DNA from: Candidatus Oxydemutatoraceae bacterium
GTDB lineage: Bacteria; Pseudomonadota; Gammaproteobacteria; Poriferisulfidales; Oxydemutatoraceae
Direction: 5' to 3'
Length of the DNA stretch: 64,000 nucleotides
Assembly: GCA_965220085.1 (NCBI GenBank)
Contig: CBDCOZ010000001.1
Span: forward strand, 64,001 to 128,000
The notes beneath the pieces were generated by a model that saw only the letters and a list, made by a program, of their open reading frames with translations, had not been told where the DNA came from and did no database searches. The position numbers and the translations under genes are program-made. This document shows positions 20,950 through 64,000 of the stretch, one piece after another. How positions within the stretch are numbered: the first letter of the stretch is position 1; each line of letters opens with the position of its first letter.

Positions 20950-21078
20950 GGCTTTGCCATTCTCACATATCTCGTTGGAAAGTCAAACTTCAGAAGGTCA
21001 AACTTCACTACAGCGGACACTAGAGAGGGCAATCTGCCTGTGCGCTTGCGCCTTTTCCTGAAAGGCCCATTGCGGTAG
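20950..21078 (+). pseudogene. Orphan 3' tail of a FLEGPLR-family gene
   Basis: Ends PVRLRLFLKGPLR*. Followed by the same intergenic block as at 22658. No plausible gene body upstream. Confidence 0.6.
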
Positions 21079-21373
21079 TGCGCGTGACTGCGGCGGAGCA
21101 GGGGAGTATTATGGGGCGCACACGGGAGCGAGGCAGGATATGCAGGCATTTGCATGATTTGCATTTTGTGGTATAGTGCGACAGTTAACTAATTCACAAA
21201 CAGTTTATGGAACATAAACAATACTCAATTGTTTGTGCCTCATTAAAATGTTGTTTGTGTACATGATAAAAATCAGGAGGCATACTATGATTTGTAGCAG
21301 AGCACATAGCATTGAGGGCGCCAACACTCATGGCACAGCCGTGTTCACCGAACAATCCATGAGGAGTAATAGC

Positions 21374-22657
21374 ATGAAACGACAAGTTTTTAATACCCCC
21401 CCCCCCCCCCCCGCACAGTGGCGGGTAACACGAACCCGGCGTAGCCTTTGGGCGCTGTTTGTTGTCTGCGCTCAAGCGCAGGCGCCGACCAACACGACCG
21501 CTACCGGCGAACCGGCGGTGACGGCGGCGGACGGCGCCGACCTGACCATGGCGGGGCCGAATGCGAACAGCACGACCCTCGCACAGCGGGGAGCGACGAT
21601 GATACGGCGTAGCCTCTGGGCGCTGATGTTGCTCGCCTTGATTACCGTACGCGCTCAAGCACAAGCGCAGGACACCGCGCCGGACTTTGGCGATGCGTCG
21701 GTCACCGGTTCGGACCTGATTTGGCTGACCGACCGGGACCTCAATCTGGTCTTGCCCGCGGCCACCGGCGGCAATGGCACCATCACCTACAGCCTGTCGC
21801 CGACTCTGACGTCTGCCACAAGACTCAGATTTGATGCGGCCACCCGCACCATCAGTGGCCGACCGGCTTTTTCTGTCGGCACCAACAACTTCACGCTGAC
21901 GGCCACCGATGCCGATGGCGATACCGATACGCTGACATTCCGCACCAAAGCCGCCGCAGATGCAGTACCGGCCTTTGCCGCTGATGCGAACATAGCCGAC
22001 CAGATGCTGGTGCGCGACAATGCCGTCACCCTGACCCTGCCCGGGGGATCCGGGGGGAATACCCTCCGCACTTCCGATTTCTTGGCATTCTTGGTTCCGC
22101 TCACTTACACGCTGACCCCGGCGTTGCCTGCGGGGCTGACCTTTGATGCGGACGCTCGCACCATCAGCGGTACGCCGACAGCGGCTGCTGCCGAGGCGCA
22201 GTACACCTACAGGGTTGCCGATGGTGACAGCAATACCCTGTCCAGCGATGAATCTACCCTGACTTTCACCATCACCGTAACTTGCGCCAGCGGCGAAACA
22301 CACACCGCCACGGATCTGGCACCGGACTTTGGCAGCGCATCTGTTGAGGATCAGGCCTGGGAAGTGGGCACGGCCATCACCGACCTGACCCTGCCTGCGG
22401 CCTGCGGCGGCAATGGCACTCTCTCGTATGCACTGTCCCCGGCCCTGCCCGCCGGTCTGACCTTTGATGCCGCCAGTCGCACCATCAGCGGCACACCCAC
22501 GGCCGCCGCCCCTGCCGCCACTTACACATATACAGCGGGGGATGGCGACAGCAACACCGCAAGCGGCGATGCGGACACCCTGACCTTTAGCGTAACAGTG
22601 GCAAGTGTGGACATACGCCTGCGCCTGCGCCTGTTTCTTGAAGGCCCGCTGCGATAG
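21374..22657 (+). CDS. Secreted protein with three putative-Ig (He_PIG-like) repeats and a FLEGPLR C-terminus
   Basis: GAGGAG RBS, AQAQA signal-peptide-like ends and LPAGLTFDAxxRTISGTPT repeats. Alternative start at 21599. Confidence 0.85.
   Translation: MKRQVFNTPPPPPAQWRVTRTRRSLWALFVVCAQAQAPTNTTATGEPAVTAADGADLTMAGPNANSTTLAQRGATMIRRSLWALMLLALITVRAQAQAQDTAPDFGDASVTGSDLIWLTDRDLNLVLPAATGGNGTITYSLSPTLTSATRLRFDAATRTISGRPAFSVGTNNFTLTATDADGDTDTLTFRTKAAADAVPAFAADANIADQMLVRDNAVTLTLPGGSGGNTLRTSDFLAFLVPLTYTLTPALPAGLTFDADARTISGTPTAAAAEAQYTYRVADGDSNTLSSDESTLTFTITVTCASGETHTATDLAPDFGSASVEDQAWEVGTAITDLTLPAACGGNGTLSYALSPALPAGLTFDAASRTISGTPTAAAPAATYTYTAGDGDSNTASGDADTLTFSVTVASVDIRLRLRLFLEGPLR
21396..21412 (+). 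repeat. C17 homopolymer tract
   Basis: 17 consecutive C, 22 nt after the ATG at 21374, currently in frame. Confidence 0.9.
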
Positions 22658-22803
22658 CGCGAGCCACCACGGAGCAGGGGAGTATTATGGGGCGCACACG
22701 GGATGCGGCAAGATACAAAGACATTGCGGGATTCGCGTTTTGTGGTAGAGTATGTACTTACTTACAGAGTTTCTCCGGATACAGACTGTCAAGAGACATT
22801 AGT

Positions 22804-23929
22804 ATGGATTGCAAAACTTACGATACGACCCCCGCGCGGCGGGGAGCAACGATGATACGGCGCAACCTCTGCTCGCTGATGCTACCAGCGCTGTTTGTTG
22901 TCTGCGCTCAGGCGCAAGAGCAGATCAACACTGCCGCTGCTACCGGCGAACCGGCGGTGACGGCGGCGGACGGCGGCGGACGGCGCTAATCTGGCTACGG
23001 CGGGCCCCAATGTGAGCAGCACACTGACCGCAACCCGCGGCACCATAGCCGATGCCGATGGCATCACCGCTTTCACCGCCAGCTGGCAGTGGCAGGAGCT
23101 TGAAATTGCGACCGTCTCCACCGCCACTTTCACGGGCAGGACGAAGCGGCTGGACGATTATCTCCTGACCGTTAACTACGCGCCAGCCCCGGCCTATCCC
23201 GCCGCCTTGCGCTCGGCTTTGCACCGCTGGATTGGCGGCGACCCCGATTATTACGCCAACACCGACTTTGCCGGTTCCGAATCGGAAATAGTCAGCTTCT
23301 CCCCGCGCTTTCTGAGCGCGTTGCATCTGAACCCGGTCCTCTTTCCGGAGGATGCCGTTTTCCAATGCCAGCGAAACGCCGCCACAAACAGGGCGGTGCT
23401 TCACTGCTTTTATTCCGAAATTCCGCAGATGCCCAATGTCACCAATATCACCGGCGCCACCTCTGCGACTTTCACTCCCATGCAGGCGCAGGTGGGCAAA
23501 TTCCTCCGCGTCTGCGGCACCTTTGATGATGATGCCGGCAACAGCGAGACGCGTTGCTGGACTTCCGTTGCGAAGGTCAACGTTGCCGCCACCGGCGAAC
23601 CGGCGGTGAACGGCGTCCCAAGAGAGGACAGCCCACTGACCGCAGACATCGGCACGATAGAAGATGACAATGGCATCACTGACATCGCCCCCGCCTGGCA
23701 GTGGCAACAGGGCGACACAGCCGATGGCTCCTTCGCGAACATAGCAGGCGCTACCGCCGCCACCTTCACGCCCATGCAGGCGCATGTGGGCAAATTCCTC
23801 CGCGTCTGCGGCACCTTTGATGATGATGCCGGCAACAGCGAGACGCGTTGCTGGACTTCCGTTGCGGCGGTGCTCCAAGCCGACATACGCTTGCGCTTGC
23901 GCCTCTTCCTGGAAGGCCCGCTGCGATAG
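22804..23929 (+). pseudogene. Frameshifted secreted Ig-like repeat protein with a FLEGPLR C-terminus
   Basis: Removing one copy of the 10-bp duplication CGGCGGCGGA (22961-22980) joins the signal-peptide ORF to ORF 23012-23929. Contains two WQWQ...GAT..TFTP...LRVC...RC modules. Confidence 0.8.
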
Positions 23930-24070
23930 CGCGAGCAACCCGTAGCACTTGCGCGACACACCTCTTCTTGAAGGCTCGCTGCGATAGCGGGCGCCGACCT
24001 GCGTTTCTTTCTCGCGCCATTGCGGGACTCCCGCGCGGGTGTCGGCGCCGATTCGCAGCCATCGCGCGCC

Positions 24071-24997
24071 CTAAGCGCGGCGCTCGATCTCAAGCGACAT
24101 GTCGATCGCTGTGACATCTTTGGTCAGGCTGCCGAGCGAGACAAAGTCGGCGCCGCAGCGTGCGATATCCGCTAAATCGTGTTGCGCTAAGATTTTTTCC
24201 GTGCCCGATATTTCGGTCAAACAGCGCCCGTCAATCAAGGCGATGGCTTGCCGGACTTGCGGCAGGGAAAAGTTGTCAAGCATGATGATGTCCGCGCCGC
24301 TGTCACAGGCTTCGGCGACTTCTTCAAGCGTCTCGGTCTCCGCTTCAACGATGGCGTCGGGGCAGCGCGCGCGCGCCCGCGCGACCGCTTCTGTGATCGA
24401 GCCGCAGGCGCGGATGTGGTTGTCTTTGATCAGTATCATCTCGGACAGGTCAAAGCGGTGGTTGTGCCCGCCGCCGCAAGCGACCGCGTATTTCTGCGCG
24501 ATGCGAAGCCCGGGCAAGGTTTTGCGCGTGTCCAGCAGCAGCGCGGTCGCATCGTCGCCGTGCTCCAAGGCGGCTTTGGCGTCGCGGGTTTTGCTTGCGA
24601 CTCCCGACAAGGTTTGCAGGAAGTTCAGCGCACAGCGCTCGCCGCCGAGGATGGCGCGCAAGGGGCCGCTGATTACGCACAGCGCCTCGCCGGCGCGAAA
24701 TGCCTGTCCGTCTTTGCGGCGCCATGCCACGTCAACCGCCGGGTCGAGCTTGGCAAAGACGGCGTCCGCCCAGAAACATCCGGCGAGCACGCCGGCGGCG
24801 GAACCGGCAACGACGGAGGCGCGACCGATGCGGTCGGCGGCAATCAATGCCGAACTGATGTCGTCGCCTGCGGTATCTTCCGCCAGCGCCGCATCGACGT
24901 TGGCACGGACGGCGTGTGCCAGCCGGTCGGTGATGATGCCGGGTGCGAAGGTGCGGCTGATGATGTCGTGTTTGGCGGGCGGCGCGGGGCGTGTCAT
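24071..24997 (-). CDS. nadC: Quinolinate phosphoribosyltransferase
   Basis: DTRKTLPG, NHR, IKDNH and MLDNF. Confidence 0.95.
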   Translation of the reverse strand: MTRPAPPAKHDIISRTFAPGIITDRLAHAVRANVDAALAEDTAGDDISSALIAADRIGRASVVAGSAAGVLAGCFWADAVFAKLDPAVDVAWRRKDGQAFRAGEALCVISGPLRAILGGERCALNFLQTLSGVASKTRDAKAALEHGDDATALLLDTRKTLPGLRIAQKYAVACGGGHNHRFDLSEMILIKDNHIRACGSITEAVARARARCPDAIVEAETETLEEVAEACDSGADIIMLDNFSLPQVRQAIALIDGRCLTEISGTEKILAQHDLADIARCGADFVSLGSLTKDVTAIDMSLEIERRA

Positions 24998-25665
24998 CGG
25001 TTGTTTTCTCTTGCGAGTTGTTGCCTGAGCATGTTGAGCCGTTCAAGGGTGCCGACATCCATCCAGACGCCGCTGTGGAGTTCGCCGGTGACTACGTTCT
25101 GCGGTATTTTTTCTTTGAGCAGTTCGACCAGCGGCGCGCGCCCGGGCGAGGCGTTGTCAAAGAACGACGGCTTGTAGTAACTGATGCCGGAGAAGGTCAG
25201 CAACTTGCCGCTGTCGGCGGTGATGTGCTTGTCGTCCAAGTAGAAGTCGCCGCCGGGGTTGTGCTCGGGGTTGTCGACCATGACCAGATGCGCTTGGGCG
25301 TTTTCCAGTTGCAACGGGCGGATTGCATAGTCGGTGAAGATGTCGCCGTTGATGACGACGAACGGTTCGCCGCCGAGCCACTCCAAGGCGTTGATGATGC
25401 CGCCGCCGGTTTCCAGCGCGCCCGCCATCTCGTCCGAGTAGGTAATCTTTGCGTTGTAGTCGGAACCTTTGCCGAGTTTCTTGCGAATCATCTCGCCGAG
25501 ATGGCCGAGGTTGATGACGATGTCTTTGATGCCGGCCGCGCGCAGCCGTTTGAGGTGGTATTCGATCAGACACCGGGCGCCGGCCTTGAGCAATACTTTC
25601 GGCGTGTCGTTGGTCAGGGGCCTGAGTCGGGCGCCGCGTCCGGCTGCTAGGATCATCGCTTTCAT
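24994..25665 (-). CDS. murU: MurNAc-1-phosphate uridylyltransferase
   Basis: MKAMILAAGRG.RLRPLT and LETGGGI. Adjacent to amgK. Confidence 0.88.
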   Translation of the reverse strand: MKAMILAAGRGARLRPLTNDTPKVLLKAGARCLIEYHLKRLRAAGIKDIVINLGHLGEMIRKKLGKGSDYNAKITYSDEMAGALETGGGIINALEWLGGEPFVVINGDIFTDYAIRPLQLENAQAHLVMVDNPEHNPGGDFYLDDKHITADSGKLLTFSGISYYKPSFFDNASPGRAPLVELLKEKIPQNVVTGELHSGVWMDVGTLERLNMLRQQLARENNR

Positions 25666-26621
25666 CGTTTCGGCAGGGAGTTTAACAGACGTTGCAGGTT
25701 GCGCAGTATCGGGTCATCGCCGCTGTCCAGTTCGCCGATGTAGGACAAGGTGCGCGGGATGTCTTTGAGGTAGCCGTCTTTGTTGTCGCGGTGATGCAAA
25801 CGGGCGAATATGCCGGCGGCTTTCAGATGCCGTTGCGCGCCCATCAGGTCAAAGTAGCGGATGAATGTGTCGGCGTCCATGTCTGTTTCGGCGCGTTGTA
25901 AGTAGTATGTGACCCAGCCCAGATAGGTCTGCCGCGGCCATTTGACATAGCAGTCTTTGAGCAGGGAGACGAGGTCGTAACTCAGCGGGCCGGCCACCGC
26001 GTCTTGATAGTCTATCGTCGCCATGCGCTGCGCGTCGGCGCATATCAGGTTGCGCGAGTGGTAGTCGCGGTGGACGAAGACGCGCGGTTGCTCCAGAGCG
26101 GTGTCCGCCAGATAGTGATAGGCCTCGCTGAGTTGTCGCAGGTCGCTCTCGCGAAGGTCCGCTTGCAGGTGTTTGATGCAGTACCAGTCGGTGAATAGCT
26201 CGGCCTCTTGTATCAGGGCGCGCTTATCGTACGGCGGCAGTTGTTGCGCGGCGACGGATTGTATCGCGACCAGCATGTCGATCGCTTGGCGGTAGAGGCC
26301 GTCGGCGGTGTCGTCGTTGAGTTGGGTGCCGAGCAGATTATCGCCAAAATCGTCTATCAGCAGAAAGCCGTCGGCGGGCGCGTATGCGCGGATGTGCGGT
26401 ACCGCGATGTGAGCGGCTTCCAGCATCGCGGTGACGGCGACGAAGGCGGCGGGGTTTTCTTTGTCCGGCGGCATGTGTGCTGCGAGCAGGCGACAACCCT
26501 CGCGGGTGATTCTAAAATAGCGGCGGAAACCGGCGTCGCCCGGCAACGCTTGCAACGCGAAATCGTCGTCGCCCCAGGTTTGCCGGAGCCAGTTTTTTAG
26601 TGCATGTGGCGCTGAGTGCAT
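25662..26621 (-). CDS. amgK: Anomeric MurNAc/GlcNAc kinase
   Basis: GDAGFRRYFR, HRDYHSRNL, IDYQDA and QRHLKAAGIFARL. Confidence 0.88.
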   Translation of the reverse strand: MHSAPHALKNWLRQTWGDDDFALQALPGDAGFRRYFRITREGCRLLAAHMPPDKENPAAFVAVTAMLEAAHIAVPHIRAYAPADGFLLIDDFGDNLLGTQLNDDTADGLYRQAIDMLVAIQSVAAQQLPPYDKRALIQEAELFTDWYCIKHLQADLRESDLRQLSEAYHYLADTALEQPRVFVHRDYHSRNLICADAQRMATIDYQDAVAGPLSYDLVSLLKDCYVKWPRQTYLGWVTYYLQRAETDMDADTFIRYFDLMGAQRHLKAAGIFARLHHRDNKDGYLKDIPRTLSYIGELDSGDDPILRNLQRLLNSLPKR

Positions 26622-26682
26622 GGGTCGTATATGATATTGATATGACAGATTGTATTCACAAACCGGATTTGTAAAACATGCG

Positions 26683-28449
26683 ATGACAGAAGAGCGACAA
26701 AATACGGAGATTCGAGACATCGCCACGTTGTCGGACTTGTTCGTCCGCCGTGTCGCGCTGTCGGGCGGGCGGGTTGCGTATCGGCAGCATGACGGCGGCG
26801 AAAACACTTGGCGCGAGTGGCGCTGGGACGATGTGGCGACCGAAGTCGCCCGCTGGCAGCAGGCGCTGTTGGCCGAGGGGCTGGCGCGCGGCGCGCGGCT
26901 TGCCATCATGCTGCCGAACGGGGTGCCTTGGGTGGTGTGCGATCAGGCGGCGCTCGGTTTGGGACTGGCGGTGGTGCCGATTTTCAGCCACGACAATGCG
27001 GGCAATGTCGAATATATCTTGCGTGACTCCGGCAGTGAAATACTCGTTACCGACCGCGCGCGATTTTCTGTGATTGCCAACTTGGAGATAGTGCCGACAC
27101 TCAAGCGTATCGTAGTAATCGATGAAGCCGACAGTCCGGAGTTGCCTAACGCGGTTGCGTTAGATAGCTGGCTGGCGCATAAGCCCGATTCCGTTTTGAC
27201 CGGTGCCGCACCCGATGATATTGCCACACTGGTTTATACATCGGGGACGACCGGTGCGCCCAAGGGGGTTGTGTTGACGCACCATAACTTGCTGTCTAAT
27301 GCGGTTGCGGTGCAGAAGTCATTTCCGATAGGCGCGGATAATCTGTTTTTGTCTTTCTTGCCGCTATCACATATTTTTGAGCGCACCGCAGGCTATTACA
27401 TGACCATGTTGATTGGAGCGGAGGTGGCGTTTGCGCGTTCTATTCAACACCTCAAGGAGGATATGCTGATAATAAAGCCGACCGTGATGTTTGCGGTGCC
27501 GCGCATATTTGAGGGCATGTTGGAGAAGCTCAATGCATCGCTTAGCGGCGCATTGGCGCCTTTGCGCTGGTTGCTGGCGCGGGCGGCGGCGCGGCCGGCG
27601 CCGCGGCGCGGGCTGTGGTTCGGATTGGCGCGCATCGTCGTCGACAGACTCATCGGGCGGCGGTTTCGCAAGGCGTTCGGCGGGCGCATGCGGCATATGG
27701 TGAGCGGCGGCGCGGCGCTGTCGCCCGATGTGGCGCGGGCGTTTATCGCGCTTGGCGTGCCGGTGTATCAGGGCTATGGTTTGACCGAGACTGCGCCGGT
27801 GATTTCGGTAAACCGCCAGCACAGCAATGTGCCGGAAAGCATAGGCCCGCCGATTCACGGCGTGGAAGTCAAGCTCGGTGACGGCGATGAGTTGTTGACG
27901 CGCAGCGAATGTGTGATGCGGGGATATTGGAATTTGCCTGAGGTAACCGCGCAAGCGATAGATGCCGATGGCTGGTTTCATACCGGTGATAGGGCGCGCA
28001 TAGACGCGTATGGACGGTTGTATATCATCGGGCGGATTAAAGAAATTATCGTGATGTCTAACGGTGAGAAAGTGCCGCCGGTTGATATGGAAAATGCGTT
28101 GCTGGCGGATCCTTTGTTTGATCAGGCGATGGTGTGGGGAGAGGGCAAAGCGTTTCTGGTTGCGATATTGGTTTTGAATCCGGATGAGGCGGCAAGTTGC
28201 CCGGGAGACATGACGCCGCAGGCAGACGGTAGCGTGTTAGCGGATGATGCCTTCGGGAAAGAAGTGATGAAACGGGTTTCTTTGCGGTTGAAGGGTTTTC
28301 CATCCTACGCCAAGGTTCGTCGCGTAATTATTGCGCCCGAGCCGTGGACGGTTGAGAACGGTTTTCTGACGCCGACCTTAAAGCTCAAACGGCATAAGAT
28401 TCTTGAACGGTTGGGCAAGCAGATTGAAAGTGCGTATCTTTCAATCTAG
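26683..28449 (+). CDS. Long-chain acyl-CoA synthetase
   Basis: YTSGTTGAPKG, QGYGLTE, GWFHTGD and TPTLKLKR. Confidence 0.92.
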   Translation: MTEERQNTEIRDIATLSDLFVRRVALSGGRVAYRQHDGGENTWREWRWDDVATEVARWQQALLAEGLARGARLAIMLPNGVPWVVCDQAALGLGLAVVPIFSHDNAGNVEYILRDSGSEILVTDRARFSVIANLEIVPTLKRIVVIDEADSPELPNAVALDSWLAHKPDSVLTGAAPDDIATLVYTSGTTGAPKGVVLTHHNLLSNAVAVQKSFPIGADNLFLSFLPLSHIFERTAGYYMTMLIGAEVAFARSIQHLKEDMLIIKPTVMFAVPRIFEGMLEKLNASLSGALAPLRWLLARAAARPAPRRGLWFGLARIVVDRLIGRRFRKAFGGRMRHMVSGGAALSPDVARAFIALGVPVYQGYGLTETAPVISVNRQHSNVPESIGPPIHGVEVKLGDGDELLTRSECVMRGYWNLPEVTAQAIDADGWFHTGDRARIDAYGRLYIIGRIKEIIVMSNGEKVPPVDMENALLADPLFDQAMVWGEGKAFLVAILVLNPDEAASCPGDMTPQADGSVLADDAFGKEVMKRVSLRLKGFPSYAKVRRVIIAPEPWTVENGFLTPTLKLKRHKILERLGKQIESAYLSI

Positions 28450-28458
28450 GTATCCCGT

Positions 28459-29268
28459 TTAGAACTTATAGCCCATCAATTCGATTTCATCGGCAAAATT
28501 TGTTGCCACGAGATCCCTCACTTCCGGGGTATATAGGCTACGGTAGTCTTGCTCGCGGGGAGTTTGCGTCGCTTTGGCCTTTGGGTGTGTACGCCATGCG
28601 CTAAAAGGAATACCCAGCTTGTCGCATACTTGCTCAAACTCCTCGTCCAAATTTTCATATCTGATTATTTTATTGACCAGCGAGTTCCCATTGCGATCGC
28701 TATATAGTCGGTAATTATCTGTGTAATAGCTTTCAGTCCGGATATATCTTTCTACGTATTCTTCCCAGCTCAGTTCCAGACCCTTCTCCGCGCGCTTGTG
28801 CTGCGCCCAGAAATAAAAAGATATCAGTCTGTCCCAAGTGTTTCGCGCAACACAGAACACATGGTAGTCATCCCATATGTTCTTGCCGACCATATCCTTG
28901 ACCTCTCTTGCCGGTATATGGGAATAATCGTCTACGAGTTGGTATTTCCACGGCACGGGCTCATCGTTTTTCAGCAGCAACGGAAGGTCGGGGTTAAAAG
29001 TCGACATTCGCAGGCTGTGTTGCAACTGTAAGATGCCGGATTTTATCGCTCTCCTATCGGCTCGCAAAATTTCTCTCATGGCCGAGCGGCAACCGGTGGC
29101 AACTATGAATCGCTTCCAATTGCGCGCGTAATCCCAGTCATCTTCGTCAATCATGGGAATGATGATATCGCGCTTGCCGCAATGCTTGGACAGGTATAGC
29201 TCAATGCTACTACCGGCTGTTTTGTAAGTTTTGATAAAAATGAATTTATATTTGTGGGAAATGATCAC
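28459..29268 (-). CDS. Sulfotransferase family 2 protein
   Basis: IISHKYKFIFIKTYKTAGSS, RNxWDRxISxY and IRYENL. Confidence 0.85.
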   Translation of the reverse strand: MIISHKYKFIFIKTYKTAGSSIELYLSKHCGKRDIIIPMIDEDDWDYARNWKRFIVATGCRSAMREILRADRRAIKSGILQLQHSLRMSTFNPDLPLLLKNDEPVPWKYQLVDDYSHIPAREVKDMVGKNIWDDYHVFCVARNTWDRLISFYFWAQHKRAEKGLELSWEEYVERYIRTESYYTDNYRLYSDRNGNSLVNKIIRYENLDEEFEQVCDKLGIPFSAWRTHPKAKATQTPREQDYRSLYTPEVRDLVATNFADEIELMGYKF

Positions 29269-29441
29269 GGGCGGTCGGAGTCTCTGCGCTTCGTTATTGT
29301 AGGGGCAAATACGGGGATTGCAATACCGCAGGCTCTTGCGGAGCGGCGGCGGATGGCGGCAGCCGTCGGCTTTGGGCCGCCTGCCGCCTGCGGACAAATA
29401 AAAATGACGCGGCTGTGCGTGTCGTGCTAATATAGAACATC

Positions 29442-31319: not shown

Positions 31320-31475
31320 CTGTCGGCCCGGCGGCCGTCTCAAGAGCGCAACTCGCACAAAAGAGTCGCTGTCGGCCCGGCAGCCGTTTCAAGAGCGCGG
31401 CTCGCACAAAAGAGTCGCTATCGGCCCGGCGGCCGTTTCAAGAGCGCAACTCGTACGCGAGAGTCGCTATCGGTC
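31309..31475. repeat. 49-bp tandem repeat spanning the convergent sulP/trmB stop codons
   Basis: Units at 31309, 31358, 31407 and 31456. Confidence 0.9.
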
Positions 31476-32112: not shown

Positions 32113-32115
32113 GGA

Positions 32116-32910: not shown

Positions 32911-32918
32911 CGCGATGC

Positions 32919-33119
32919 TCAGCCTCCGCCGACCGCTTCGATGATCTCTATGCGGTCGCCTTCCGCCAGCGGTGTGCAATGGCGTTTGCCCGCCGGAATG
33001 ATCTCAAGATTTACTTCAATCGCTATCTTGCGATCGGTCAGCGCAAGGCGCGCGATCAAGTCGGCGAGCGTCGTACCGCCGCCGAAGTCGCGTTGTTTGC
33101 CATTAACGATAATTTTCAC
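32919..33119 (-). CDS. thiS: Sulfur carrier ThiS
   Basis: 66 aa ending VGGG, upstream of thiG. Confidence 0.93.
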
Positions 33120-34398: not shown

Positions 34399-34407
34399 CT
34401 TCGGGTT

Positions 34408-49777: not shown

Positions 49778-50006
49778 TGGCCATCCGAAATGCGCGCAAA
49801 GTTGCCATACTCCGCTTGCGGCTTGCAAAAGCTCGGTCACAGCCTGAAACAACGACAGCGCGCCTGCGGCAACATGCAGATCGTCATCCAAGATAAGCGC
49901 AACGGAGCCTTGTCCGCGGCTTCCGATTCGCGCGGCATCGGCGCCGCAGCGGCAGGCGCATTGCGTTGATGGCCATCCGAAATGCGCGTAAAGTTGCTAT
50001 ACTCCG
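49626..50006 (+). repeat. 192-bp tandem duplication of the ggt/DUF4390 junction
   Basis: Units at 49626 and 49818, with several substitutions. Confidence 0.93.
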
Positions 50007-50625: not shown

Positions 50626-50666
50626 GCGCGGCGGCGCGGTAATCATGTCTGCGCGAGGTATCCGGC

Positions 50667-55527: not shown

Positions 55528-56966
55528 GCCACTTCTTGTCCATCCAGCGGGTGCTGGGCATGCTCCTGATGATGTTCAGTTTTACGATGCTGGCGCCGGT
55601 CATGGTCGGCATCTGGCACGGAGAAAACACCGTGCCGTTTGCGCGCTCGTTTCTGATTATCTTCTCGGTCGGCGCGGCGGCGTGGTTTGTCGCGCGCAAC
55701 CATCGCGTCAATCTGCGCCTGAAGGAAGCGTTTTTAATCGTCGTGTTTGCCTGGAGCGTCATCAGCGCCGCCGGCGCCATGCCCCTGTACATGCTGGAAG
55801 TTCCGCAACTGGCTTTGCACGAAGCGGTCTTTGAATCCATCGCCGGTCTGACCACGACGGGCGCGACCGCGATCACGGGTCTGGATTCGCTGCCCCGCGC
55901 GGTGTTGCTGTATCGTCACCTCTTGCAATGGTTCGGCGGACTCGGCATCATCCTGATCGCGATAGCGATCACCCCGATTCTCGGCATCGGCGGGATGCAG
56001 CTGTACCGCACCGAGATGTTGTCTGCCAGCATGAGCGCCAGAATTCTGCCGCGCATTCGCGAGATGACGATGTTGCTGTGGCGCATCTACATGTCTTTGA
56101 CGGTCGCATGCGCGCTGGCGTACCGGCTTGCCGGCATGTCGTGGTTTGATGCGATATGCCACAGCTTTTCAACCATCGCCATCGGCGGCTTCTCAACCCA
56201 CGATGCGAGTTTCGGCTATTTTGCCGACAAACCGGCGGTGCTGGCGGTGGCGATCGTGTTTATGATTCTCGCGGCGACCAGTTTCAGTCTGCATTTTTTC
56301 GCCTGGCGCAAACACTCGCTGCTGGCATATTTCAAAGATGCGGAATTCAAAGTTTTTATCTCCCTGCTGGCCGTCGTCACAGTATTGACGCTCGCGGCGC
56401 TGGCCAACGCCGGCGCCTATGACGATTTAATCGCGGGGGTATTCCACGCCATTTCCATCACGACGACGACCGGATTTGTCGCCGCCTCTGCCGAGAGTTG
56501 GCCGCATGTGATTCCGATGCTCTTGTTGTTCGCCAGTTTTGTCGGCGGCTGCGTCGGTTCCACCGCCGGCGGGATGAAAGTCATCCGCTTTTGGTTGCTG
56601 TTAAAGCAAGGCTTTTTGGAGATGCGGCAACTGATCCATCCCGATGCGGTGACGCACCTGAAGGTCGGGCGCAAGGTGCTGGACAACAGCACGATTCAAT
56701 CGGTGTGGGGTTTTTTCTCCGCCTATGTGGGGTCGCTGATACTGATTACCTTGTTGCTGATGGCGAGCGGACTGAATCAAGAAAGCGCGTTTTCGGCGGC
56801 GGCGGCGGCGATTAACAACCTCGGTCCCGGGCTCGGAGATGTCGCCGAGAACTATGCGACGGTCAATCAATTCGGCAAGTGGGTCCTGTGTTTTTCCATG
56901 CTGCTTGGGCGTTTGGAGGTGTTTGCGCTGCTGATTGTCTTCTCGCCGGTGTTCTGGCGCAAGTAA
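55524..56966 (+). CDS. trkH: Trk potassium permease TrkH
   Basis: TTTGAT, GGFS, STAGGMK, NLGPG and GRLE. Confidence 0.95.
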   Translation: MSHFLSIQRVLGMLLMMFSFTMLAPVMVGIWHGENTVPFARSFLIIFSVGAAAWFVARNHRVNLRLKEAFLIVVFAWSVISAAGAMPLYMLEVPQLALHEAVFESIAGLTTTGATAITGLDSLPRAVLLYRHLLQWFGGLGIILIAIAITPILGIGGMQLYRTEMLSASMSARILPRIREMTMLLWRIYMSLTVACALAYRLAGMSWFDAICHSFSTIAIGGFSTHDASFGYFADKPAVLAVAIVFMILAATSFSLHFFAWRKHSLLAYFKDAEFKVFISLLAVVTVLTLAALANAGAYDDLIAGVFHAISITTTTGFVAASAESWPHVIPMLLLFASFVGGCVGSTAGGMKVIRFWLLLKQGFLEMRQLIHPDAVTHLKVGRKVLDNSTIQSVWGFFSAYVGSLILITLLLMASGLNQESAFSAAAAAINNLGPGLGDVAENYATVNQFGKWVLCFSMLLGRLEVFALLIVFSPVFWRK

Positions 56967-57044
56967 AGGGTGTATAATGCCGTTTCAGATATTCCCGTAT
57001 CTCGCTAATTTGACCTATCCGACTATTTGTAATAAATTGAAAAC

Positions 57045-58247
57045 ATGCTATTTGACCTGTTAACTGGAAAAGGGTTGTTGCAACCGGAGTGGTGGGCGCT
57101 TGTCCTGCTGGCTCTGGGGATGACCCACCTGACGATAATCTCCGTAACGCTTTACCTGCACCGTTGCCAAGCGCATTGCAGCCTGGCCTTGCACCCGATC
57201 GCGTCGCATCTGATGCGGCTGTGGCTGTGGCTGTCGACCGGGCTTGTGACCGCCCAGTGGGTCGCCGTGCACCGCAAGCATCACGCAAAAGTGGAAACCG
57301 CCGACGACCCGCACAGCCCCGCTATTTACGGCATTAACGAAGTGCTGTATCGCGGCGCGGAACTCTACCGCGACGAAGCCGTCAAAGAGGAGGTGGTCAA
57401 AGCCTACGGTCACCACCTGCTGCCGCGAGATTGGCTGGAAAGAAACCTATACGGCGCCCATCCCTCGTTCGGAATCGCCGCGATGTTGTTGATTCAATTC
57501 GCACTGTTCGGGTTCTTCGGGATCATGATTTGGGCCGTGCAAATGGCGTGGATACCGTTCTTTGCCGCCGGTGTCATCAACGGCTTGGGGCATTTCACGG
57601 GCTACCGCAATTTTGCGACAGATGACAATTCCACCAATATCGTCAATTTCGGAGCGCTCGTAGGCGGCGAGGAGTTGCACAACAACCACCACGCGTATCC
57701 GTCTTCGGCAAAGTTCTCCATGCGGTGGTGGGAGTTTGATATCGGTTGGTTCTACATCAAGTTGCTCAGCGCCTTCGGCTTGGCGCGCGTATTGCGCCGC
57801 GCTCCGGTGCCGAAAGATGATGCCAACGAGTTGACGGAAGTGACCCCGTCCACGCTAAAGGCTCTGATTCAAGGCCGCCCGCACGTGTTGTTGGAATATG
57901 CGACCGATGTCGTCAAACCCATTTTTAAGGCCGAACTGGCCGGCGCCGACAAATCGCGCCGCAAGTTGTTGGCCAAGGTAAAAAACGCATTGTTCCTGCA
58001 CCAGCGTCACATTACCGAGCAAGACATCAGCGCGTTAAAGGAAGCCGCCCTGAACAGTCGGCAGTTGCAAGTGATATACGAGTTCAAGCACACGCTTGAA
58101 GACCTGTTGCACAACTGCCGCGATCAGAATCAATTGCTAAAGTCTCTGCAGGATTGGTGCCGCAAGGCGGAAGAGAGCGGGATACAGGCGTTGTCGCAGT
58201 TTTCGGAGCGCATCTGCAATTATTCGTTGCATTCGCAACGCACTTGA
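57045..58247 (+). CDS. desA: Delta-9 fatty acid desaturase (DesA-like)
   Basis: His boxes HRCQAH, HRKHH and HNNHH. Confidence 0.88.
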   Translation: MLFDLLTGKGLLQPEWWALVLLALGMTHLTIISVTLYLHRCQAHCSLALHPIASHLMRLWLWLSTGLVTAQWVAVHRKHHAKVETADDPHSPAIYGINEVLYRGAELYRDEAVKEEVVKAYGHHLLPRDWLERNLYGAHPSFGIAAMLLIQFALFGFFGIMIWAVQMAWIPFFAAGVINGLGHFTGYRNFATDDNSTNIVNFGALVGGEELHNNHHAYPSSAKFSMRWWEFDIGWFYIKLLSAFGLARVLRRAPVPKDDANELTEVTPSTLKALIQGRPHVLLEYATDVVKPIFKAELAGADKSRRKLLAKVKNALFLHQRHITEQDISALKEAALNSRQLQVIYEFKHTLEDLLHNCRDQNQLLKSLQDWCRKAEESGIQALSQFSERICNYSLHSQRT

Positions 58248-58317
58248 GAAAGGCCCCGCTCGCGCGAGGCGCGCGGATGGCGCGACAGAAGGAGGGCGCC
58301 GATTACATCGGCGCGCC

Positions 58318-58485
58318 TTACTTTGATATTTTGCTTTCTTTGTAGATGACGTGTTTGCGGACAACCGGATCGTACTTTTTCAATTCCAGTTTGGGCGCGT
58401 CGGCGCGCTTGCTTTTCACCGCGGTATAGTAATGACCGGTCTTGGCGCCGGAGACGAGTTTGATTTTCTCCTTCTTGCCGGCCAT
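58318..58485 (-). CDS. rpmG: 50S ribosomal protein L33 (not in ORF track)
   Basis: [21 protein letters not shown]...[14 protein letters not shown], 55 aa. Confidence 0.95.
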
Positions 58486-58721
58486 TAAACTTTCTCCCCG
58501 CGGTTGCGCAAGTCGTTTGCCACGCGCTCAATTCCTTTCTTCTCGATAATCCTAAGCCCCTTGCGCGACACCCTCAGCTTGATCCAACGGTTTTCTTTCG
58601 GATGCCAAAAGCGATGGGTGTGAAGGTTGGGCAAAAAGCGGCGGCGCGTTTTGTTATGCGCGTGCGAAACATTGTTGCCGCTCATGGGCCCCTTGTGCGT
58701 TATTTGACAAATTCTGGACAT
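58485..58721 (-). CDS. rpmB: 50S ribosomal protein L28
   Basis: MSRICQIT...[19 protein letters not shown]. Confidence 0.97.
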
Positions 58722-59438
58722 CGGTTTTTGTGGTTGCTCAATGAAACAAGGGACAGATTGTACCACAAGCCGCCCCATCGCCGCAGGCAACTCGCATTAC
58801 CGCAGGGGCCCTTCCAGGAAAAGGCGCAAGCGCAACAGCAGAGTCGGTTCCTGATCCGGTTCCTGCTGTTGGAGAATGCATTCCGTCGCGCCGTCCAGAT
58901 TCGCGCCTGCCGGAGACATGCCCGCCCCGCAGTTGAAAACATACGGTTCCATCGGCGGAATCCTCTCAAACGCCGCCGTGACTGCCGCGATTTCTTTCGC
59001 AGTAGTGTCCAGTGTGCCCAGCGACGGAAAGGGAATCCCGTTGTTCTTAAATGTTTGAATCAAAACGAATCCGAAGGAGGGGAAAGAGACTCTCAATTGG
59101 TCGAGGCTGGTTTGGGTGATGGCTTCGTTAATATAGTCCGGCTCGCCGTTGTATCGCCCCAAAACCGCGTCCGCATAAGCCAGCGCCACCGGGCCAACAT
59201 TGCCGCTAAGTCGGGTGTTTATCAACCGAAAGTCGTCAGTGAGCTTTTGCACCCGCGGCGGAATGACCGCATTGCCGCTCATGGGGCCTTTGTTGGTTAT
59301 TTGGCAAATTCTAGACATCGGTTTTTGTGGTTGCTCAATGAAACAAGGGACAGATTGTGCCACAAGCCGCCCCATCGCCGCAGGGGACTCGCATTACCGC
59401 AGGGGCCCTTCCAGGAAAAGGCGCAAGCGCAACAGCAG
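58675..59438. repeat. ~167-bp direct repeat (58675-58841, 59272-59438) of FLEGPLR tail + rpmB upstream region + rpmB 5' end
   Basis: Offset 597 bp, with a few substitutions. Confidence 0.92.
58797..59318 (-). CDS. Chimeric ORF: L28 N-terminus + unknown domain + FLEGPLR tail
   Basis: Starts [16 protein letters not shown], ends LLLRLRLFLEGPLR; 173 aa open. Confidence 0.65.
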   Translation of the reverse strand: MSRICQITNKGPMSGNAVIPPRVQKLTDDFRLINTRLSGNVGPVALAYADAVLGRYNGEPDYINEAITQTSLDQLRVSFPSFGFVLIQTFKNNGIPFPSLGTLDTTAKEIAAVTAAFERIPPMEPYVFNCGAGMSPAGANLDGATECILQQQEPDQEPTLLLRLRLFLEGPLR

Positions 59439-60275
59439 GTTCTCTACGACTATGATGTTGCCGTCGGTGCATCGCGTCTCGTTAGCGGGAGTGGCATGCT
59501 GATCCATGAAAGAGGCGCAGACGCGGACGTATGTCCCCGCATGTGCCTGCCGGGGGGTAAAGGTGGCGGCGGTCGCGCCGTCGATGTCTTCGTATGCATC
59601 GGCGGCCGGGATGCCGCTGGCCGGGGCCGCGGCCGATTGCCATTGCCAGCGCAGGGTGCCGGTGTTTATGATGTTGTTGTCGGCTATAGTGCCGATGGCG
59701 GCGGTGATGGGCACATCCTTGTTCCAGGCGGTGCCTGTGTCGGCGGATACGACGGGGGCGCCGGTGGCGGCCTCTTGGGTGGGGTTGAACAGGCGGATGG
59801 TCATGGTGCCCTTTGCGTTGCCGAGGCTTCCTGCGGTGAGGACATAGAAAAAGAATGTGGCGTAGTTGCGCGTCTGTGCCTGGCCCGTGGGCGGATGGTA
59901 GCTGATGGTGGATATGGCGTTTGCGGTCACAACAACTCTGGTTCCAAAAGTCGTGCCGGTGACGGCGGAGGAGCCCGCCCGCAGAGTGCCCCTTGTGGGT
60001 TTCGATAATCCCACACTGACGAGGGCATCATCTTCCGCATCGGTGAAGCGGAAGTCGGATAGCTTGAAGTGGTACGGGGATGCGGCGGTGGCGTCTATGG
60101 ACACATCAACGCTGGACGGCTGTGCCTGAGGGTCGAAGTTTTGCGCCTGGGCCTGGCCGCAGACGGCAATCAGGGCCGGCAGAATAAGCGACCGGAGGTT
60201 GCGTCGGGTCATTGCCGAGTCAATCCCCTTGCTTACAAAACTGCGCGGGCGCGTATCAAAAGTTTGTCGTTTCAT
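59394..60275 (-). CDS. Secreted Ig/cadherin-like protein with a FLEGPLR C-terminus
   Basis: MKRQTFDTRPRS leader, QAQA cleavage-like site, DFxFTDAEDD and a WQWQ...RVC...RC module. Confidence 0.82.
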   Translation of the reverse strand: MKRQTFDTRPRSFVSKGIDSAMTRRNLRSLILPALIAVCGQAQAQNFDPQAQPSSVDVSIDATAASPYHFKLSDFRFTDAEDDALVSVGLSKPTRGTLRAGSSAVTGTTFGTRVVVTANAISTISYHPPTGQAQTRNYATFFFYVLTAGSLGNAKGTMTIRLFNPTQEAATGAPVVSADTGTAWNKDVPITAAIGTIADNNIINTGTLRWQWQSAAAPASGIPAADAYEDIDGATAATFTPRQAHAGTYVRVCASFMDQHATPANETRCTDGNIIVVENLLLRLRLFLEGPLR

Positions 60276-60318
60276 AATTCTGCTCCCGATGTGGTTTGCG
60301 CATACAGTGCGTTTCCTA

Positions 60319-62173
60319 TTAGCGCAACGGGCCTTCCAGGAAGAGGCGCAGGCGCAGTAGCAGACTTGAGCTGGCAACCGCAGGAAGGCCAAGGCTGCAT
60401 CGCTCCTCGTCTGCCGGTGTGGTGGGGTGCTGGTCCTTGAAGGAGGCGCATACGCGAATGTATTTGCCGATATGGGCGGCGCGAGGCGTGAAGCGGGAGG
60501 TGCTGCCCGTTGTCGCGGTGTCTTCTATATCGTCGTAGGCGCCGATTACAAAGGTGGGGCTGGAGGGGGCATCGGCTTCTTGCCACTTCCAACTCAGGGT
60601 GTTTGTATCAACGCCATTTTGATCGGCCACGCCATAGATGGAAGCTGTCAGCGGCGCATTGGCGGCATATGAAGCGCCCATGCCGCCCGTCACCGTGGGC
60701 GCCCCCCCGGCGACCTGTTGCGTGGTTTCTCCCAGAACCAGATTGATGGTGACAGTGCCATGCGAACTGATGGCGGTGGTATCACTCAGAGAGTAGCCGC
60801 GATAAGTGAAACTGGTAAAGCCGGGGGTGATGGAAATGGCCTCGGGGGGAGGTATCCAGAACAGATTTTGCGTAGCGTTGGCGGCAAAGTCGCTGGGGAT
60901 GACTGAGCTCGTATCCTCATTGCCGCGGAGAATGGTTCCGTTCCTCCTGACCAATCTGCCACGGTCAGGCACAGTGATTATTTCCACAATAAAATTGCTT
61001 CTGGTGACGGCGTTGCCATCCGCATCCTTGAAGGCAAAGTCGTTTAGCTGAAAGAGATAGCGATCGCTCCCAACCCCGACATCAACGCTGGTATCCTGGG
61101 CGGCGGGGATGCCGCTTGTCTGGGACGTACCGGCCACAGGAGCGCCGATGTTGCATCGCTCCTCGTCTGCCGGCGCGGGGTGCTGGTCCTTGAAGGAGGC
61201 GCAGACGCGAATGTATTTGCCGACATGGGCGGCGCGCGGCGTGAAGCCGGAGGTGAGGCCGCCCGTTGTCGCGGCGCCCGCTATATCGCTGTAGGCATCA
61301 TCACTGACTGCAGAGGAGCCGCTGGAGGGGATATCGGCCTGTTGCCACTGCCCAGGCAAGGGTGCTTGTATCAATGCCATTTCGATCCTCCACGCCATAG
61401 ATGGAAGCTGTCAGCGGCGCATTGGTGGCATATGAAGCGCCCATGCCGCCCGTCACCGTGGGCGCCCCCCCGGCGACCTGTTGCGTGGTTTCTCCCAGAA
61501 CCAGATTGATGGTGACAGTGCCATGCGAACTGATGGCGGTGGTATCACTCAGAGAGTAGCCGCGATAAGTGAAGCTGGCAAAGCCGGGGGTGATGGAAAT
61601 GGCCTCGGGGGGAGGTATCCAGAACAGATTTTGCGAAGAGTTGGCGGCAAAGTCGCCGGGGATGACTGAGCTCGTATCCTCATTGCCGCGGAGAATGGTT
61701 CCGTTCCTCCTGACCAATCTGCCACGGTCAGGCACAGTGATTATTTCCACAGCAAAATTGCTTCTGGTGACGGCGTTGCCATCCGCATCCTTGAAGGCAA
61801 AGTCGTTTAGCTGAAAGAGATAGCGATCGCTCGCAACCCCGACATCAATGCTGGTATCCTGGGCGGCGGGGATGCCGCTTGTCTGGGCCGAGGCGCAGGT
61901 CGCGCTTAATGCCAGGGACAGGGCCAGCAGGCAACGCGCGGCGGCTCCGGTCATAGCCCGGCGGGCGGTGCCCGCCACTCGCACAGACATCAGGCGCACT
62001 GCAACAGACCACAGCGACAGCATCAACCCACGCACCGCCGGGGGGCGAGACCGCTTTGCGGACTGCGGATATGCGGGTGATAAAAAACGGGTGAGAAGGC
62101 GATACGGCGAAACGCCGACAATCCTCTTATTGACAAGACTGCGCGGGCGTGTATCAAAAGTTTGTCGTTTCAT
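60319..62173 (-). pseudogene. Frameshifted secreted protein with two ~254-aa repeats and a FLEGPLR C-terminus
   Basis: ORFs 61301-62200 and 60319-61398 join if one G is removed from TGGGCAG (61351-61353). Repeat offset is 763 = 762+1. Confidence 0.82.
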
Positions 62174-62215
62174 AATTCTGCTCCCGATGTGGTTGTTCAT
62201 AAAATGTGTTTCTCA

Positions 62216-63439
62216 TTACCGCAAGGGGCCTTCCAGGAAAAGGCGCAAGCGCAAGCGCACGGCAGTCAAACCTATGGTGAGGGTGGCCTCGTTGCTGTCG
62301 GCATCGCCATCGCTGAGGGTGAAGCCAAGGGTGGCGCTTACAAGGGGGGCGCTTGACGAATTGTCGTCGATTACGGTCAAGGTCAGGTCGCCGCCGCTGA
62401 AGTCGCCGTTTGTTATGGCCAGGGTCTGATCCTCCGTCACTGCTTCGTTGTTGAAGTTGAGGGTGAGGCCCGCCTGCGGGGGCAAGGCAGTGATGGTGAC
62501 CGATGCCAACTCATCGCCATCGTCATCGTCATATGCGCCTATGAAGACGCTGGCGGGTATGGTGATGGGCGCACTGTCACCAGCGGAGCGGGAGGCCTGG
62601 TATCTGGCATCGGCAGCCTTCGGCGCGAACTTCACCGTGATGGTGAAAGTGTAATCGGCAGACACGGCAGGGCTGGCAGAATCCGTCACCGTCAGAGTGT
62701 AGGTGGTGGTGGGCATGGCTTCCGTCGGGGTGCCGGAAAACAGATACCAGTAATCAAGAAGGGGATGGTTTCCACCGCTCATACCGGCGGGCAAGGCGGG
62801 TGAAATGCTGAATGTCAGGGGCCTGACGCCGCCGCCGGGGTTGATTGCATAATCAGCTGGCAAAGCCTCGCCAACTATCCAAACCTGATCAGTGCCTCCC
62901 CTATCCAGAGCGGCTTGCAAAGTGGTTAATACGCCGGAAAGACGCGGATGCCATGTGGGCCCCTGCAACACTTCAATGGTGAAGGTATCGCTCACCGTGT
63001 CGCCGTCTGCGTTGGTGGCCGTGTATGTGTAAGTGGTTTCGGCCTTGGCGGCTGTGGGGTTGCCCGCAAGCGCCCTGGTGGAGGCTGTGAATGTCAGACC
63101 CGCAGGCAGGGCGGGTGTGAGCGTATAGGTGTAGGTGCCGTCCGGCAGAGCATTGGGCAACGCGAAGTTTAGCGCGCCCCCATTTGTAGCATACAGCCGA
63201 TCGTGCAAGGCGGCATTGAAGCTGAGCGTCTGCGCGAACGCGGGGGAGGCCGCAACCGACAGCAGCAATATCGCAACCGACAGCCCGGCCACAGCTGGGC
63301 AACGCAACCGCACTGCGGTGCATGGCGAGTATATGAGGGATGGCGGCAGAAAGAGGGCGGCGAGGCGATGAAGCCAGGCGGCCGCAATCCCCTTATTTAA
63401 AAGACTGCGCAGGCGCGTATCAAAAATTTTTCGTTTCAT
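62216..63439 (-). CDS. Secreted protein with two He_PIG-like repeats, a cadherin-like domain and a FLEGPLR C-terminus
   Basis: MKRKIFDTRLRS leader, AFA cleavage-like site, LPAGLTF and DDDGDEL. Confidence 0.85.
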   Translation of the reverse strand: MKRKIFDTRLRSLLNKGIAAAWLHRLAALFLPPSLIYSPCTAVRLRCPAVAGLSVAILLLSVAASPAFAQTLSFNAALHDRLYATNGGALNFALPNALPDGTYTYTLTPALPAGLTFTASTRALAGNPTAAKAETTYTYTATNADGDTVSDTFTIEVLQGPTWHPRLSGVLTTLQAALDRGGTDQVWIVGEALPADYAINPGGGVRPLTFSISPALPAGMSGGNHPLLDYWYLFSGTPTEAMPTTTYTLTVTDSASPAVSADYTFTITVKFAPKAADARYQASRSAGDSAPITIPASVFIGAYDDDDGDELASVTITALPPQAGLTLNFNNEAVTEDQTLAITNGDFSGGDLTLTVIDDNSSSAPLVSATLGFTLSDGDADSNEATLTIGLTAVRLRLRLFLEGPLR

Positions 63440-63481
63440 AGTTCTACTCCCGATGTGGTTTGTATATAAAATGTGTTTCCA

Positions 63482-64000
63482 TTACCGTAGCGGGCCTTCG
63501 AGGAAAAGGCGCAGGCGCAGTAGCAGACTTGAGCCGGATGACGCACCTTCCACAGGAAGGCTAAAGCTGCATCGCTCCTCGGATACCGGCGTGGAGTGCT
63601 GGTCCTTGAAGGAGGCGCATACGCGAAGGTATTTGCCGGCATGCTCGGCGCGCGGCGTGAAGCCGGAGGTGAGGCCGCCCGTTGTCGCGGTGTCCGCTAT
63701 ATCGCTGTAGTCCTCCTCACTGACTACAGAGGTGCCGCTGGAGGGGGCAGCGGCCTCTTGCCACTGCCAGCCCAGGGTGCTTGTATCAATGCCATTTACA
63801 TCAGACACGCCATAGACGGAAGCTGTCAGCGGCGTATTGACGGCATATGAACCGCCCGTGCCGCCCGTCACCGTGGGCGCGCCCTTGGCGGCTGCCTGCG
63901 TGGTTGATGCCACCATGTTGATGGTGACGGTGCCATGCGAACTGAAGGTGCTGATATCATTGTAACTGTAGCCGCGATAAATGAAACTGGTATAGCCGGG
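63482..64000 (-). CDS. Partial FLEGPLR-family protein (5' end beyond window)
   Basis: Frame is open to the window edge. Paralogous to the 60319-62173 repeat unit. Confidence 0.85.
   Translation of the reverse strand, partial: PGYTSFIYRGYSYNDISTFSSHGTVTINMVASTTQAAAKGAPTVTGGTGGSYAVNTPLTASVYGVSDVNGIDTSTLGWQWQEAAAPSSGTSVVSEEDYSDIADTATTGGLTSGFTPRAEHAGKYLRVCASFKDQHSTPVSEERCSFSLPVEGASSGSSLLLRLRLFLEGPLR

Follow-up and report, generated by a model that had tools for sequence, protein, structure and literature searches.

Autotransporters are defined by the possession of their own translocator; in the type Va members this is a C-terminal β-domain (PF03797) of ∼400 residues, and the last barrel strand of autotransporters is read by the β-barrel assembly machinery (BAM). 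In the type IX secretion system (T9SS) of Bacteroidota the C-terminal domain (CTD) that serves as the signal is a folded β-sandwich of about 70–100 residues, the donor strands of chaperone-usher pilins are N-terminal and complete the incomplete Ig fold of the next subunit, and cargo of the type II secretion system (T2SS) has no defined linear signal. The element described here is a 13-residue peptide tag, LRLR[LIV]FLEGPL[RQ]-COOH, that closes open reading frames (ORFs) in a 64,000-nucleotide stretch of the genome of a Candidatus Oxydemutatoraceae bacterium (G000:C1:64001-128000; this whole stretch is referred to as the window), and that a first-pass annotation, made from the sequence alone, had put forward as a candidate new sorting or assembly signal. 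Near-orthologues of the tagged proteins in a related organism carry an autotransporter β-domain at the position of the tag, and because the tag stands in for that domain an export or display role is strongly suggested. The reading favoured here, on the basis of sequence comparison, is that a portable C-terminal signal for export or display, the tag, took the place of the autotransporter barrel; we assign this reading a probability of about 0.55, a value that covers the general export or display claim and not the proposed involvement of BAM.

The replacement was recognized through nine database proteins, found by word search in assemblies of a near relative, that carry the PF03797 β-domain. For each of the nine (9/9) the best match in the studied genome is a tagged protein, and three are near-orthologues: P0134 and C3:582804-584732 (87% identity over 572 aa), P0149 and C3:1674966-1676516 (84% over 479 aa), and P0152 and C3:1516402-1518381 (87% over 644 aa; C1 and C3 are the contig labels used for genome coordinates). 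In all five pairs that were aligned (5/5), homology stops at the last strand of the passenger domain (…TITINL, …HMSINL). Past this point the autotransporter continues with a further domain or a linker and then the 12-strand barrel, at least 400 residues ending …YRLRARLRW, and the protein of the studied genome has 2–6 residues, the 13-residue tag and a stop codon. The orthologous passenger domains of the relative are complete without the tag. In a sixth pair, P0155 shares 86% identity with a gene from an array beginning in the window, the relative's protein continuing into He_PIG domains. Compared with a type Va β-domain, the tag is found in the same place on the same passengers (orthologues 84–87% identical), behind Sec-dependent N-termini, and is likewise an alternating Arg/hydrophobic strand with an RLRxRL core, but it has 13 residues in place of ∼400, lacks both barrel and linker helix, ends in an invariant LEGPLR (or LEGPLQ) rather than in an aromatic residue, and would have to act in trans.

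An intact PF03797 barrel could be detected neither in the studied genome (0) nor in 18 family relatives (0), and searches of the studied genome for other type V machinery, ShlB (TpsB) and YadA_anchor, were equally blank (0 and 0). Two barrel relics are nevertheless present. One, at C3:835582-836031, comprises about 140–156 aa with 64–74% identity to eight of the nine barrels and 51% to the ninth; the other, at C3:1518535-1518755, is a frameshifted remnant of the final 70-odd residues that starts 12 nt past the stop codon of a tagged gene. Because the near-orthologues have barrels and relics of barrels survive in the studied genome, the change appears here to have run from barrel to tag; paralogues probably recombined at domain boundaries and then lost the barrel by deletion. 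The tag core RLRxRL furthermore resembles the last barrel strand of the relative's proteins, seven of nine of which end ..RL[RQ]ARL.W. In 620,637 untagged residues the pattern RL[RQ]xRL turns up just 12 times, and of 2,353 untagged ORFs a single one has it within its last 12 residues. It is this peptide pattern that points to a possible origin of the tag in the last strand of the barrel.

The genome (2.49 Mb in three contigs, GC content 0.556; its DNA is contained in three sequencing runs of one study, for which no RNA run is listed) contains 226 matches to the tag motif (x)LRLR[LIV]FLEGPLR, 220 of them with a stop codon immediately behind; these numbers far exceed chance, and the gene ends are many more than the first-pass annotation had counted. 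The six non-terminal matches comprise three near an N-terminus, two in which the stop has become Gln or Trp, and one that is unrelated. The terminal copies are written as 199 distinct 42-mers, end in TAG (139), TAA (53) or TGA (28), and have R as last residue in 219 of 220 cases. Over the 2,640 tag codons (12 core codons in 220 copies), departures from the modal codon are synonymous 859 times and non-synonymous 99 times, 63 of the latter being L/I/V substitutions at the one tolerated position; a single neutral random step would be expected to be synonymous in 30% of cases, and a reversed-pattern control gave no match in any genome searched. The synonymous excess, the 199 spellings and the fixation of stops at one position show that strong purifying selection acts on the tag peptide and on the stop position directly behind it, so that protein-level selection, first claimed from the copies in the window, is borne out by the whole genome.

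A greedy gene call yielded 2,520 ORFs, of which 167 are tagged, and these hold 153,185 of 773,822 coded residues (19.8%). Their median length is 455 residues, with nine exceeding 2,000, among them proteins of 6,024 and 13,236 residues and the longest of 15,193. The passengers, at first described as diverse, do include several domain types (He_PIG and, from precomputed annotations, Cadherin_3/4/5, Big_9, SCAB-Ig-like and PPC), but 163 of the 167 called tagged ORFs form one single-linkage BLAST superfamily of shuffled modules. Among the untagged ORFs, no more than 26 have a paralogue with the tag, and several of these 26 bear decayed tags. Many tagged proteins start with a Sec-type signal peptide ending …AQAQA; a crude regular expression detected signal-peptide-like N-termini in 81/164 tagged and 253/1,437 untagged ORFs, counts that, with uncurated ORF starts, are underestimates by an uncertain amount. 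The tag also lies near the N-terminus of three proteins, in each case between a signal peptide common to the three and the residues GGSS. Of these proteins, two have PPC repeats and the third is S1-serine-protease-like by motif only (TAYHC, DYALLL, GSSGG), with no match to a Pfam family.

The relationship of the tag to the fold that precedes it was examined in an alignment of 24 paralogous C-terminal regions. The Cys-paired Ig-like domain is ∼50% conserved among these and is followed by a linker of variable length that is often Gly/Ser-rich, and in the last ten columns of the tag R, F-L-E-G-P-L-R and two Leu positions are invariant. An AlphaFold2 model built on this alignment, with the stretch 63482..64000 of the window as the modelled example, placed the Ig-like domain at a per-residue confidence (pLDDT) above 90, linker residues 118–122 below 50, and the tag at 57–63 with no secondary structure assigned. 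A fold search with the Ig-like domain returned generic Ig-like matches only (TM-score about 0.45). Genome-wide, the tag is found behind eight or more unrelated types of domain end, and it lies outside the preceding folded domain.

No Pfam family covers the tag in the seven window proteins searched and no NCBIfam model reaches its cut-off in them, and inspection of the sequence agrees with the first-pass annotation that there is neither a transmembrane helix nor a terminal aromatic residue. The T9SS CTD is comparable in being a C-terminal signal without a transmembrane helix, carried by Sec-exported, Ig-rich surface proteins that share one translocon; the tag differs in having 13 residues, unstructured in the model, and in belonging to a gammaproteobacterium, and no Pfam CTD family was matched in the seven window proteins, a search aimed at the T9SS itself not having been made. 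LPXTG/sortase, PEP-CTERM/exosortase and GlyGly-CTERM/rhombosortase systems share with it a short, conserved, lineage-restricted C-terminal tag on many secreted proteins, but these are tripartite signals, and the tag lacks both a hydrophobic helix and a basic tail behind the motif. Sortase (PF04203) and exosortase (PF09721) were each found zero times in the genome. A rhombosortase is present (TIGR03902, 93.7 bits, above cut-off), though the tag has no GG motif. A PPC-domain protein of this genome (C3:1167979-1169079) does end in poly-Gly, a hydrophobic helix and an Arg-rich tail in the manner of GlyGly-CTERM, and together with the rhombosortase (C3:475041-475553), as whose own substrate it is taken, it constitutes a second, conventional C-terminal sorting system.

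Like a chaperone-usher donor strand, the tag is a terminal strand whose five alternating hydrophobic residues could fill a partner's groove, but the folds that precede it are complete in the AlphaFold model; no search for an usher or chaperone was made. The signal-peptide-like N-termini of many tagged proteins, whose autotransporter orthologues we take to be Sec-dependent by family, do not fit type I secretion, for which the genome has one TolC. Sec-type signals and a T2SS are both encoded, as type II cargo would need, and nothing links the tag to that system. As to the BAM β-signal, the hydrophobic alternation is present and the last residue is R in the studied genome and Q or R elsewhere. 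The tag is thus real, strongly selected, rare and unlike any known sorting system.

Its rarity was assessed at both DNA and protein level. DNA tag patterns run against 185,579 species genomes gave no match and, later, eight single matches in scattered phyla, which were taken as chance (our own rough estimate for that pattern was ∼17); both of these patterns demanded a final Arg, and a Q variant would escape them. Against the JGI metagenomes the patterns gave 0 and 0, and among 40 relatives, the 53 genomes of the order and 400 class genomes drawn evenly only the studied genome matched; all but one of the DNA patterns assumed CGN arginine codons. When a profile built from 27 tag tails was run against 1.84 billion proteins (E ≤ 0.001), 82 matches were returned, of which 73 are the studied genome's own, six are foreign C-terminal tags ending …LRLRLRVFLEGPLQ or …LLRLRLFLEGPLQ, and three are unrelated proteins without the motif. 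A word-indexed search added four foreign proteins, ending LRLKVFLEGPLQ, RLRLRVFLEGPLR, MRLRVFLEGPLR and RLRLFLEGPLQ plus five residues; a word search with one C-terminal region returned only the studied genome's own protein. The foreign tags end in Q or R. Where a foreign tagged protein has any match in the studied genome, its passenger is only 25–49% identical, yet 11–13 of the 13 tag residues are kept, because of which the tag, as judged from these sequences, appears rare but not limited to one genome and conserved far beyond its passengers. The profile search returned no foreign internal copy, and the suggestion of the first-pass annotation that a similar (V/L)FLEGP strand is an internal motif of some Bacteroidota surface proteins was not upheld; the sole internal motif belonged to one of the genome's own proteins with an N-terminal copy. 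A full-text search of a literature library with tag peptide strings found nothing apart from an unrelated duck-liver proteomics study.

Three of the Q-type foreign proteins are labelled at source as FN3 proteins of a metagenome-assembled genome of Candidatus Oxydemutatoraceae, a gammaproteobacterial family. One species of the genus Oxydemutator in this family, Oxydemutator thiolithooxidans, is listed as a dominant symbiont of a Stylissa sponge (PMC11685487), and the studied bacterium is probably also sponge-associated.

The inventory of export machinery in the genome is short. A single Omp85 protein, BamA, was found. No Slam was detected, a weak blank since the control matched nowhere either, and TolC is accompanied as an outer-membrane portal by PilQ. 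At C3:452100-466000 the genome encodes a full gsp operon, made up of C, D, A, B, E, F, pseudopilins, J, K, L and M. The periplasmic domain of its GspM (C3:464749-465246) contains an acidic alternating strand, MEFDMEVFD, at positions occupied by K/Q/G in six family relatives; as a receptor for the tag this strand was set aside, as the only closer homologue, a 71%-identical GspM from an organism that may or may not have the tag, already has most of it. The C-terminal part of GspC matched no PDZ model. Elsewhere, C3:1155685-1156575 (− strand) encodes a 296-residue signal-peptide protein with no Pfam match, a net charge of −55 and several E-x-E-x-E strands; it is small and barrel-like and ends in a β-signal-like …INLEYAF. 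It was likewise rejected as a tag acceptor, having homologues in 13 of 18 tagless relatives, with five of the seven examined strongly acidic.

It can tentatively be proposed that the tagged proteins are barrel-less autotransporters, in which the 13-residue strand hands hundreds of Sec passengers to one shared outer-membrane machine, possibly BAM, replacing the cis-encoded type V barrel, saving ∼400 codons per gene, and being shared by several sponge-associated gammaproteobacterial lineages. In this scheme the passengers would first cross the inner membrane by Sec. The segment LRLRLRLFLE would form an amphipathic β-strand of ten residues, its two faces made up of five Leu and of Arg-Arg-Arg-Phe-Glu, respectively, and GPLR-COOH would provide a turn and a recognized free carboxylate. 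The strand would pair by β-augmentation with the shared machine, which would export the passenger, hold it, or both; with ∼200 passengers served in trans by one translocator or anchor, their own 400-residue barrels would be dispensable. The tag would have spread among paralogues by recombination at domain boundaries, and the barrel DNA would have been deleted afterwards. BAM, through strand 1 of BamA and/or through BamD, is our first candidate for the machine because the tag sits at the barrel's place and keeps the RLRxRL core of the β-signal strand, although taken by itself this identification is on the unlikely side. The T2SS is a second and more doubtful choice, and a factor so far unrecognized is about as likely as either.

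Several observations weigh against the barrel-replacement reading and against BAM in particular. No partner of the tag was found in the studied genome, which leaves the strand-complementation docking of the first-pass annotation without a counterpart, whereas the export or display half of its amphipathic-strand proposal is strongly suggested by the barrel swap. BamA has no obvious lineage-specific feature in comparison with 19 relatives, and the tag lacks the terminal aromatic residue of the β-signal and has six additional invariant residues. Co-folding of BamA residues 345-765 with 30-residue tag tails scored 0.00 in a run without controls and counts neither way. Descent of the tag's DNA from the barrel 3′ end could not be supported, local alignment to the two relics not being significant (shuffle fractions 0.13 and 0.045). 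We know of no way in which a single strand could open a path for a passenger, and the nine tagged proteins of more than 2,000 residues (maximum 15,193) would have to wait in the periplasm for a signal at their C-terminus. The N-terminal copies fit a free-C-terminus signal only if the protein is cut after …GPLR.

Of the other explanations, one would make the tag a linear targeting signal for the T2SS: the proteins would fold in the periplasm, and GspC, GspL/M, the GspD N-domains or the pseudopilus tip would read the strand and the GPLR carboxylate. The full gsp operon encodes the only outer-membrane portal found besides PilQ, TolC and BamA, the Sec signals and the Cys-paired Ig-like domains are compatible with folding in the periplasm, and the genome already runs a T2SS-linked form of C-terminal sorting, in the rhombosortase and a GlyGly-tailed PPC protein that is paralogous to two of the N-terminal-tag proteins. 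The acidic GspM strand, set against K/Q/G in six relatives, could be added to these points, but co-evolution is unsupported given the 71%-identical GspM that already has most of it, GspC shows no PDZ match, and GspD, which all 18 of the family relatives without tags possess, shows that the machine is not confined to tagged genomes. Furthermore, known T2SS cargo sizes are far below the 4,000–15,193 residues of the largest tagged proteins, and the resemblance to the barrel's last strand is left unexplained; such a signal is accordingly considered doubtful. A retention anchor, with export by another route, would keep the protein at the cell surface, the strand binding lipopolysaccharide phosphates and acyl chains, the edge or seam of an abundant outer-membrane barrel, or other tags. 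The perfect Arg/Leu alternation over ten residues has the length of a membrane-spanning β-strand, a last strand running from outside to inside would leave the passenger outside, as in the final strand of an autotransporter, and the genome does encode a barrel-like, very acidic protein that contains E-x-E-x-E strands (C3:1155685-1156575). Against this, that protein family is found in 13 of 18 tagless relatives and is strongly acidic in five of seven homologues, no barrel missing a strand was found, and the crossing of passengers without barrels is not accounted for, which makes an anchor of this kind improbable.

An absence of any export role, with the tag acting as a site for periplasmic protease or quality control or being a neutral gene end spread by gene conversion during autotransporter decay, is very unlikely. 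It would accommodate the tag ends in tandem junction duplications, the orphan copies (29 of 220 in ORFs of <80 aa, some in tandem arrays of gene ends) and the rpmB chimera described below, and Arg residues would suit a trypsin-like enzyme, one of the N-terminal-tag proteins being S1-protease-like by motif. That protein has no Pfam match, however, and the 859:99 synonymous excess, the three kinds of stop at one position and the retention of the tag at 25–49% passenger identity rule out a neutral spread; passengers moreover stay open for up to 15,193 codons, and it would be strange for a genome to devote a fifth of its coding capacity to proteins destined for degradation. A further objection, already raised by the first-pass annotation against its own proposal, is that the tag merely completes the preceding Ig-like or cadherin-like fold as its last β-strand. 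In many copies it does directly follow a …TITINL-type strand, but this explanation is contradicted by the model, in which the tag is unstructured behind a confident domain, by the variable Gly/Ser-rich linkers and the variety of domain ends that precede it, and by the relative, whose orthologous domains end at the same residue and continue into unrelated sequence; it retains almost no probability. Barrel replacement by an export or display signal is the account to which the swap in near-orthologues lends natural, if sequence-based, evidence.

With respect to autotransporters, evolution appears here to have run a deletion experiment, in which the same passengers, at up to 87% identity, come with a barrel in one organism but in the other with no more than a 13-residue tail. 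Should the tag indeed serve in export or display, no shorter outer-membrane targeting signal would be known, and it would offer a direct handle on which part of the β-domain is needed for passenger translocation, a long-standing question in the type V and BAM field. Possible uses include a compact surface-display tag and, as the peptide LFLEGPLR left after trypsin, a marker for symbiont surface proteins in sponge metaproteomes.

Within the window, a six-frame motif scan and the DNA print-out identified eight real copies of the tag, each with a stop immediately after it. All seven exact copies of the first-pass annotation were recovered: LRLRLFLEGPLR-stop closes + strand ORFs at 22657 and 23929 and − strand ORFs at 58797, 59394, 60319, 62216 and 63482, with synonymous codon choice differing between copies and the peptide unchanged. 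The eighth, a variant RLRLFLKGPLR-stop at 21078 on the + strand, is present as first reported (tag PVRLRLFLKGPLR-stop at 21040..21078) but is no gene end; it is an orphan remnant, because its ORF overlaps a true DNA-methylase gene on the opposite strand (20098-20949). The sequence downstream of this copy is shared with that of the copy at 22657. The latter belongs to a gene at 21233..22657 (+) with a signal-peptide-like N-terminus and three He_PIG domains (tag 22616-22654, stop 22655-22657), and is followed by a tagged gene with two Cys-paired Ig-like domains at 23012..23929 (+; tag 23888-23926). The decayed second copy noticed earlier, HLRDTPLLEGSLR-stop, was also seen in the DNA print-out, at 23946..23987 (+), 16 nt past the preceding stop.

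The remaining copies are on the − strand. A gene leaving the window at 63482..64000 is represented by its 3′ part, an Ig-like domain, a Gly/Ser linker and the tag (63485-63523), and is preceded in coordinate order by a tagged gene with two He_PIG domains at 62216..63439 (tag 62219-62257). The tagged gene at 60319..62200 (tag 60322-60360) is split by a frameshift into overlapping halves, ORF 61301-62200 (signal peptide and front part) and ORF 60319-61398, and is either a pseudogene or an assembly error. At 59394..60392 a signal peptide, an N-domain and an Ig-like domain precede the tag (59397-59435). The last tagged ORF, at 58797..59375 (tag 58800-58838), has no signal peptide and opens with the first 18 codons of L28 (rpmB). 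It starts in a duplication of the rpmB 5′ end (58440-59375, −), in which the upstream region and these 18 codons were copied and the upstream copy was fused to the tagged ORF; the true rpmB is directly downstream at about 58470-58720 (−), and the ORF is probably a junction-duplication chimera.

Leaders ahead of the signal peptide frequently contain a run of 5–10 prolines (..NTTPPPPPP..), for example at 21233-21400 of the window and in the C3:109363 region, and many tagged genes share a MKRQTFDTRPRSL-type start, which suggests an extended N-terminal leader common to the tagged family. Tandem arrays of four tag-bearing gene ends are found at C3:908940-909461 and C3:513726-514211, with spacings of 168 bp and 156 bp, and every copy in them retains tag and stop. 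The two copies in which the stop after the tag has been lost, to Gln or Trp, are at C3:629434 and C3:1859544; in both the frame runs on, and one of them reads 159 codons further, into a ferredoxin-like gene. Outside the window, two of the N-terminal-tag genes are located on C1 in an ∼18-kb island (C1:21000-39460) of uneven GC content (0.38–0.65), bordered by a full-length mnmG and a duplicated mnmG 5′ fragment, which also contains two Fic genes, a HicB-like gene and a low-GC tagged gene.

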